Positions 43,673 through 44,312 of a DNA stretch of 64,000 nucleotides are shown here, piece after piece. The DNA is from a virus. Under the pieces are notes generated by a model. That model ran no database searches, had not been told where the DNA came from, and was given only the letters and a program-made list of their open reading frames with translations. Positions within the stretch are counted from its first letter, which is position 1. Each line of letters begins with the position of its first letter. The stretch is taken from positions 18,176 through 82,175 of the IMG/VR virus record IMGVR_UViG_3300029906_000004. One strand, written 5' to 3'. The translations under genes were made by a program, and so were the position numbers.

Positions 43673-43933
43673 TTAGTTAGGTTTAAACATTGAATGCCAA
43701 GTTAGACCATTCTGCCCAATAGCAGTATCTTCTACATCATTAGGTAGACTCTTGAATCTATTACCTGCAGCTTCTATAGCACGTATGGCTACGTTTAGTA
43801 TGTCTTTTAAATACCAGGATCTGCAATAATGATCTCTAAATCTTCGTAGATTCGTGTGCATACCAGTAAGAGACATAATAATTTCATTACGCCTCTGAGC
43901 TTGAATCTGTTTTATTGTTCTTTTTTTGTGCAT
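43673..43933 (-). CDS. Hypothetical protein
   Basis: 86-aa ORF. Confidence 0.55.
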   Translation of the reverse strand: MHKKRTIKQIQAQRRNEIIMSLTGMHTNLRRFRDHYCRSWYLKDILNVAIRAIEAAGNRFKSLPNDVEDTAIGQNGLTWHSMFKPN

Positions 43934-43963
43934 AATTTTGATAATTAACGTTAATAATCTATT

Positions 43964-44008
43964 TGTAGTGTGGGAGGACTTGAACCTCCCTGTATGCCGT
44001 TACACTCC
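43964..44008 (-). ncRNA. Mini tRNA-like element (acceptor stem plus T-arm only)
   Basis: GGAGTGT/ACACTAC (6 of 7 pairs), GGGAGG-TTCAAGT-CCTCCC T-arm, A discriminator, short linker replacing the D and anticodon arms. Confidence 0.6.
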
Positions 44009-44312
44009 AGCTTTCTACGACATTAGCTTAGCCGTTCAGTCTATACTCACGCTACGCGAGAATAGTCTGTAACATAAGTTGTATTGCCACTTATTCGCAT
44101 TCTTAGCCTATTCATTACTGTGTCTGCGGATCAATACCTGTTAGGCCCTCGTAGAAGCCATTTTAAGGCGATTCTAGACACTTTCATTATCATCTAATAG
44201 GAATGTATTACTTTGTGTCTAAAATGTTTTAAACGGCTTAAAATGAGTGGACCTAGGTCGACTTGAACGACCGTCTCCTTCAGGCATATAATGACCTAAC
44301 AGCTAATTTCTC
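44009..44312 (-). ncRNA. ssrA: Circularly permuted two-piece tmRNA: acceptor piece ~44312-44248, intervening segment 44247-44149, coding piece 44148-~44009; tag (A)GNTTYVTDYSRVA
   Basis: GGGCCTA pairs with TAGGTCC-A giving a G3:U70 pair and A73. GAC-GGTCG-TTCAAGT-CGACC T-arm. Inter-piece helices TCC/GGA, TAATGA/TCATTA, GCTAA/TTAGC. AATAAGT-GGC resume context; the tag stop codon lies in a hairpin. Confidence 0.8.

Follow-up and report, generated by a model that had tools for sequence, protein, structure and literature searches.

In plant mitochondria, t-elements are degenerate tRNA-like structures that combine an acceptor-like stem with a conserved T arm of the form GGTTCRANYCC (Forner et al. 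2007, PMC1920247). They lie at the ends of transcripts, where RNase P forms the upstream RNA's 3′ end and RNase Z the 5′ end of the downstream RNA, and the excised t-element can carry a non-encoded C or CCA (PMC1920247). A related arrangement is found at the 3′ end of MALAT1, where RNase P produces the mature 3′ end of the long RNA at the mascRNA and RNase Z trims the small RNA (Wilusz et al. 2008; Torabi et al. 2021, PMC8457004). For bacterial RNase P, a simple hairpin made of an acceptor stem, a T stem, and a T loop is sufficient as a substrate and is cut at its canonical site (McClain, Guerrier-Takada and Altman 1987, reviewed in PMC11143913). The RNase P RNA of Escherichia coli cuts such model substrates at this site whether or not the protein is present, and the E. 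coli enzyme favours substrates with a 3′ CCA, the T4 tRNA-Pro/tRNA-Ser precursor being an example (PMC11143913). RNase P and tRNase Z are the presumed maturation enzymes for the precursors of circularly permuted, two-piece tmRNAs (PMC3985003, PMC11915505). The permuted tmRNAs described from bacteria are not reported to have a tRNA-like element where the coding piece ends at its 3′ side (Keiler, Shapiro and Williams 2000; RF04321; PMC11915505).

The window analyzed here, a stretch of 64,000 nt, comes from a crAss-like phage whose complete 103-kb genome has direct terminal repeats (DTR). Its nearest annotated relatives are Suoliviridae, for example, cr52_1, cr114_1, and cr60_1. ARAGORN identifies a circularly permuted tmRNA on the minus strand, on which the element after it and the next ORF are also located, with the acceptor piece first and the coding piece second. 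The gene is of the same kind as the described bacterial permuted tmRNAs, its pieces being joined by a helix with G3:U70. The acceptor piece comprises the 3′ tRNA-like domain called by ARAGORN (44247..44285), with a T arm at 44272-44256 and the acceptor strand UAGGUCC at 44255-44249, followed by A73 at position 44248. The coding piece begins with the 5′ tRNA-like domain (44122..44148, G1 at 44148), whose acceptor strand GGGCCUA (44148-44142) pairs with 44255-44249, including the G3:U70 pair. The tag frame, GNTTYVTDYSRVA followed by a stop, was located by ARAGORN at 44047..44088, and tags related to GNTTYVTDYSRVA were found in 54 ARAGORN-called relatives.

The coding piece ends with a conserved 3′ block (44007..44035), delimited by a shared 19-mer, by alignment, and by hairpin prediction. 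In this block, ACGGC (44035-44031) pairs with GUCGU (44021-44017) around a loop at 44030-44022, and the hairpin is followed by a single-stranded tail, AGAAAGCUGG (44016-44007), of which G44007 is the predicted mature 3′ end. Co-folding predicted this hairpin in the window and in five relatives, and its stem is kept in L013 despite a different loop; an alternative AGCU/AGCU hairpin in the block was dropped for this reason. A matching acceptor piece with G3:U70 and A73 is present in 97/114 relatives, with nine different covarying acceptor helices. Five relatives score above the gathering score of the Rfam permuted-tmRNA model RF04321, and the window itself gave no match to RF04321 at E <= 10. 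The comparison indicates that the permuted tmRNA next to the element described below is real, and this tmRNA is already annotated in RefSeq records. We also observed a putative helix between the two pieces, at 44307-44301/44108-44103 of the window, where AUUAGCU pairs with GGCUAA; in relatives, the pairing strands are AUUGACU and GGUCAA, a compensatory swap.

The tail of the coding piece is followed directly, on the minus strand, by a minihelix that combines an acceptor stem with a T arm and is devoid of D and anticodon arms, as the first-pass annotation had noted. This 41-nt element (43966..44006), referred to as the mini-tRNA, is defined by its sequence, its minimum free energy (MFE) fold, the register provided by relatives, and the covariation of both helices. 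It consists of an acceptor 5′ strand AGUGU (44006-44002), an 11-nt spacer (44001-43991), a T stem GGGAGG (43990-43985) pairing with CCUCCC (43977-43972), a T loop UUCAAGU (43984-43978) closed by G43985:C43977, an acceptor 3′ strand ACACU (43971-43967), and a discriminator A (43966). CCA is not encoded; the discriminator is followed by the trailer CAA (43963..43965), which marks the predicted RNase Z-type 3′ trimming site. The 5-bp acceptor stem and the 6-bp T stem stack as 11 perfect base pairs, a possible 12th position being a G44007.A43966 mismatch, and the spacer is so short that it leaves no room for a D or an anticodon arm. The mini-tRNA starts 38-40 nt past the tag stop (44049-44047), which agrees with the distance of about 40 nt first given. 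The MFE structure of the isolated 41-mer is exactly the minihelix (RNAfold, -13.3 kcal/mol, z = -2.4). In an 87-nt context, a competing GCUG/CGGC pairing displaces the 5-bp acceptor stem in the MFE structure, which counts against a role in processing.

The boundaries of the element had to be revised. It had been described as 45 nt long, and relatives reduce it to 41 nt (44006-43966), two bases inside the original 5′ edge. The 7-bp acceptor stem drawn initially (44008-44002 with 43970-43964) requires a G.A mismatch at its second pair, and its two outer pairs (G44008:C and G44007.A) are left unpaired by RNAfold and find no support in relatives. As the acceptor begins directly after the conserved GG in all relatives with the normal 7+5 geometry, the 5′ end is, by homology, A44006 and not G44008. 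Homology therefore displaces the predicted cut, previously put 5′ of 44008, to the 5′ side of A44006, with the coding piece ending at G44007.

Features of a decoding tRNA are only partly found in the mini-tRNA of the window. The acceptor/T stack, a UUCRANY loop closed by G53:C61, and a discriminator base are present, and a cloverleaf with D and anticodon arms is absent. ARAGORN makes no tRNA call for the window element, and a search of the window tmRNA region against Rfam at E <= 10 yielded no RF00005 match, the sole match being a 6.9-bit T-arm match to a tmRNA model. Two other structures were considered at this position. A one-piece tmRNA using the T arm of the mini-tRNA as its acceptor domain was rejected since ACACU(AC) is not complementary to GGGCCUA and since the proper G3:U70 partner lies upstream at 44255-44249. 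A possible clamp of 8 + 3 bp between leader and trailer, in which the 11 nt immediately 5′ of tmRNA G1 (44159-44149) pair with 44020-44009 in the coding-piece tail, was discarded because the leader is not conserved in relatives; this pairing was taken as window-specific or fortuitous.

The 19-mer of the conserved block was found exactly in more than 115 IMG/VR contigs, a lower bound, and with 13 GenBank phage records this gave at least 129 loci, all crAss-like and of the Suoliviridae type. The 29 nt preceding the mini-tRNA are nearly invariant among these relatives. Among the matches listed, a T-arm-bearing, tRNA-shaped element occupies the same slot in 129/129 loci sharing the tmRNA 3′ block, so that the co-occurrence with the permuted tmRNA expected by the first-pass annotation is observed, and in each of these loci the tRNA-like element lies at the fixed boundary anticipated for a tRNA-like processing signal. 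The slot element begins 0-1 nt after the conserved ...GC(U/A)GG, with the exception of seven lineages (L017, L035, L049, L050, L022, L075, and L020) in which an extra hairpin-rich module of 60-75 nt follows ...AAAAGC ahead of the slot element.

The slot elements among the matches listed represent 49 distinct sequences of 40-122 nt with 21 distinct outer acceptor helices. After exclusion of the misparsed L011, the 48 remaining distinct elements comprise 15 minis (<=60 nt), 31 tRNA-sized elements, and 2 long ones. They range, among the matches listed, from a good tRNA (52.8 bits) down to minihelices of 40-45 nt. The Rfam tRNA threshold is reached by only 3/20 tested slot elements: L036 (52.8 bits), which ARAGORN calls as a good Ile-GAU tRNA, the 45-nt mini of L018 (31.6 bits), and L005 (31.5 bits). 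At a relaxed threshold, ARAGORN calls about a third of the slot elements, many of them with malformed anticodon loops. The same acceptor stem, AGUAAGU/ACUUACU, encloses a 74-nt body in L007 and a 43-nt body in L004, from which we infer that the minis arise by internal deletion. At least six mini lineages are differently shortened, and their spacers share no common motif. Since some relatives hold a full tRNA in the slot, the element appears to be a whittled-down tRNA, comparable to tRNA punctuation or to a t-element, and not a purpose-built mimic. Versions of 122 nt (L015:140-280, L055:1759-1899, and L074) have normal acceptor and T arms and carry a G-rich insert of about 70 nt in place of the anticodon/variable region.

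The tRNA-sized elements of relatives, together with at least one good tRNA in the slot and the internal deletion visible around the AGUAAGU/ACUUACU stem, are also what would be seen if the mini-tRNA were a decaying tRNA pseudogene devoid of any selected role, tRNA and tmRNA genes merely clustering in phages. Neutral decay would, however, also erode the T loop and the two stems (acceptor and T), which are kept in 129/129 loci among the matches listed. We built an anchored alignment (A2) of 29 distinct slot elements and scored the structure formed by a 7-bp acceptor and a 5-bp T stem; a MAFFT alignment made without the flanking block (A3) misaligned the 5′ strands, and the anchored alignment was used. 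In A2, 95.0% of the cells are paired, versus 62.8% after shuffling, with 0/500 shuffles reaching the observed value, and this proportion drops to 41-53% when the partners are slid by 1-3 columns. Changes on both sides are found in 11/12 pairs, and the covariation score is 0.807 versus 0.207. Among the matches listed, the acceptor and T stems add up to 12 bp in 40/48 distinct elements (110/122 loci), to 11 bp in 6/48, and to 13 bp in 2/48, the 12-bp sum being maintained whether the stems are split 7+5, 6+6, or 5+7. The T loop is, among the matches listed, always UUCRANY, i.e., UUC(A/G)AN(U/C). A pseudogene would not be expected to show such a proportion of paired cells with compensatory changes, a T-loop core without variation, and a stack that stays near 12 bp, nor a 5′ end fixed 0-1 nt after the conserved tmRNA tail. 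Nor would decay be expected to stop at one minimal architecture in at least six differently shortened lineages. We therefore regard the pseudogene explanation as quite unlikely.

Att sites of phages are often copies of the T arm and acceptor strand that form the 3′ part of a tRNA or tmRNA gene in the host. By analogy, the element could be a DNA-level feature, namely an attP-like or recombination site derived from part of a host tRNA gene. This origin does not account for the presence in the element of its own complementary 5′ strand, nor for the joint changes of both strands, which reflect selection at the RNA level. A PHROG scan of eight flanking ORFs left seven without a match and related one to families of unknown function only, with no integrase among them, and the genome is that of a 103-kb DTR crAss-like phage. 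An attP-like site is thus extremely improbable.

The occupation of the slot in the matches listed and the strong covariation indicate that the element is far more than a chance resemblance. They point to selection on the acceptor and T stems, on a stack of about 12 bp, and on the T-loop consensus, which are exactly the features that RNase P, RNase Z, and the CCA-adding enzyme recognize. By the same comparison, the D and anticodon parts appear dispensable and to have been lost repeatedly. What is kept and what is lost corresponds to the pattern predicted under selection on the top half of the tRNA alone. This pattern fits a role as a processing signal, and the conservation fits equally well recognition by any factor that reads the top half of a tRNA.

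The sequences around the mini-tRNA give further indications. The four real tRNAs of the window have the trailer CUA or CAA after their discriminator, and the tmRNA acceptor piece has CUC. With its CAA, the mini-tRNA thus bears the same CCA-less trailer signature as genuine 3′-processing substrates. Among the matches listed, the tail following the acceptor 3′ strand in the 48 distinct elements is ACAA in 37, ACUA in 4, and ACCA in 2. The next gene is an 86-aa ORF without assigned function (43673..43933, from the ORF listing), for which the PHROG scan returned no match. Its AUG is located 32 nt past the discriminator of the mini-tRNA, and relatives are equally tight. A simple terminator scan detected no minus-strand terminator between the mini-tRNA and this ORF.

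On these grounds, we think it probable that the mini-tRNA is a tRNA-derived punctuation signal, similar to t-elements and mascRNA, cut by RNase P and RNase Z; the processing-signal interpretation initially put forward is in this respect partly supported. According to this model, a tRNA gene located where the tmRNA coding piece ends on its 3′ side was reduced during evolution to a minimal substrate for end processing, in which a T stem-loop carries a stacked acceptor stem. The mini-tRNA would be co-transcribed with its flanking genes, within a longer transcript reaching the next small ORFs. Host RNase P would cut between G44007 and A44006 (+/-1 nt), generating the mature 3′ end of the coding piece, and an RNase Z-type activity would cut after A43966, freeing the downstream mRNA. 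The minihelix of about 41 nt would be a by-product and may receive CCA. The presence of a hatchet ribozyme in the region around the tmRNA is consistent with the cutting of one long transcript into pieces.

Several features of the locus call for caution about this punctuation model. The stack of the mini-tRNA in the window has 11 bp instead of 12, and the base at position -1 is a G, both of which count against processing. The window encodes ACAA instead of the 3′ RCCA by which substrates pair with the P15 loop in the RNA of bacterial RNase P. Because of this -1 base, of the non-encoded CCA, and of the preference of E. coli RNase P for a 3′ CCA, the efficiency and the order of the two predicted cuts are uncertain; 3′ trimming and CCA addition may have to precede the RNase P cut. 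In addition, directly upstream of the tmRNA acceptor piece, at 44341-44315, there is an 8-bp hairpin followed by UUUUU, which was not listed by the simple terminator scan. This hairpin and U-run leave the 5′ limit of the transcription unit undefined and count against the processing interpretation. U-runs of this type also precede the acceptor piece in Uncouvirinae-type relatives.

The mini-tRNA resembles t-elements in being a degenerate tRNA with a T arm and an acceptor stem located exactly at the boundary of another transcript. It differs from them in that it belongs to a bacteriophage and bacterial enzymes are expected to act, in that the upstream RNA is the coding piece of a tmRNA and not an mRNA, and in its further reduction to a bare 41-nt minihelix; the cuts are predicted here. 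Like mascRNA, it is a tRNA-like element placed directly after a non-coding RNA, and in both a leader-trailer extension with a mismatch at position -1 is possible (in the phage, G-2:C74 with G-1.A73). However, mascRNA is a eukaryotic, nuclear cloverleaf with D-like and anticodon-like arms, whereas the phage element has no such arms. Moreover, the mascRNA cut exposes an end protected by a triple helix, whereas the upstream end in the phage would be a small hairpin with a 10-nt tail. The acceptor/T-stem/T-loop architecture, free of D and anticodon arms, is the same as that of the RNase P model substrates (PMC11143913). Those are laboratory constructs ending in NCCA, whereas the phage element is natural and has a CAA trailer, and in the window it shows a bulge-like spacer of 11 nt on the 5′ side and an 11-bp stack, 12 bp being the tRNA length.

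The strong purifying selection on the helix and the T loop might also be due to a working small RNA or to a cis-acting part of the tmRNA, beyond a mere cutting signal. The element could remain attached as a 3′ tRNA-like cap blocking exonucleases, or it could be released and CCA-tailed to titrate a factor recognizing the top half of tRNAs; candidates are SmpB/EF-Tu, modification enzymes, and a host defence that targets tRNAs. Tag-less tRNA-like RNAs are known in phages, and the TLD-only RNA of mycobacteriophage DS6A has been proposed to titrate SmpB (PMC4131195). In the mini-tRNA, position 3 is U44004 paired with A43969 and not G3:U70, and G3:U70 is absent from all 21 outer acceptor helix types among the matches listed. 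Without this alanine identity, the element is not a tmRNA-type TLD, and a TLD-only decoy of the DS6A type was excluded on this basis. A sequence-specific partner is not favoured either, as the acceptor sequence varies freely between lineages and the spacers have no motif in common. Furthermore, when a transcript contains a free acceptor/T-arm hairpin, cutting by RNase P is to be expected in any case. A working RNA of this type is therefore unlikely. A related scenario starts from the slot itself, at which tRNAs would repeatedly be whittled down to a minihelix: after release and CCA tailing, the mini-tRNA would persist as a stable RNA and do a job of its own, for example, soaking up a host factor or a tRNA-directed defence that reads the top half, and punctuation would be only part of its role. 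We consider this scenario quite improbable.

In the literature searched, we came across no account of the tmRNA of Suoliviridae or of a tRNA-like element following it, no phage tRNA-like processing signal of this kind, and no transcriptome of a cultured member of the Suoliviridae. If RNase P and RNase Z cut as the punctuation model predicts, the mini-tRNA would represent in nature what the classic minimal RNase P substrate represents in the laboratory. Within the literature searched, this would be the first case of mascRNA- or t-element-style 3′-end formation in a bacterial virus. Such processing would account for the defined 3′ end of a two-piece tmRNA in a long phage transcript without a terminator, and it would imply that phage tRNA genes can persist as pure processing signals after decoding has been lost. 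The series of slot elements, from a full tRNA to a 40-nt helix, represents a natural deletion series for the minimal in vivo needs of bacterial tRNA-processing enzymes. The element also offers a compact RNA-cutting module driven by host enzymes for Bacteroidales genetics. For annotation purposes, tRNA finders miss most slot elements.

Another tRNA is found within the tmRNA genes of some relatives. In cr114_1, a 63-bit tRNA-His(GUG) lies within the intervening segment between the two tmRNA pieces (L002:1316-1388), and the same arrangement is found in L118. Processing of this tRNA would release both tmRNA pieces. Judging from the sequences, the tRNA-His of cr114_1 and the slot tRNA of L036 are further instances of tRNA punctuation in this gene family. 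We also considered punctuation throughout the 103-kb genome by other candidates combining a T arm with an acceptor stem. Besides the known tRNAs and the tmRNA, two odd, adjacent tRNA-like candidates are located on the minus strand of the window, at 26035-25908 (128 nt) and 25896-25797 (100 nt). In each, a 7-bp acceptor helix accompanies a T arm with TTCGAYT, and the second is followed by the trailer CUA. They were called by ARAGORN only with introns allowed at a relaxed threshold, and gave no Rfam match at E <= 1 and no blastn match in the phage collection. This pair lends no support to genome-wide punctuation, and the idea was dropped.

The intervening segment of the tmRNA varies from 15 nt to about 600 nt across relatives. 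In L010 (cr113_1, 811-1392), L011 (cr56_1), and L017, it reaches about 600 nt and contains an annotated endonuclease CDS on the opposite strand. Other structured RNAs are present a few hundred nucleotides upstream of the tmRNA in relatives: RAGATH-9, RAGATH-7-assoc, and RAGATH-20 were identified with Rfam at 102-159 bits, none being above the Rfam threshold in the window. These RAGATH RNAs are located at L014:1133-1312, L012:606-785, L002:792-959, L006:1021-1148, L010:464-564, L005:906-1007, and L004:853-955. In L014, the end of RAGATH-9 coincides with the start of the annotated tmRNA.
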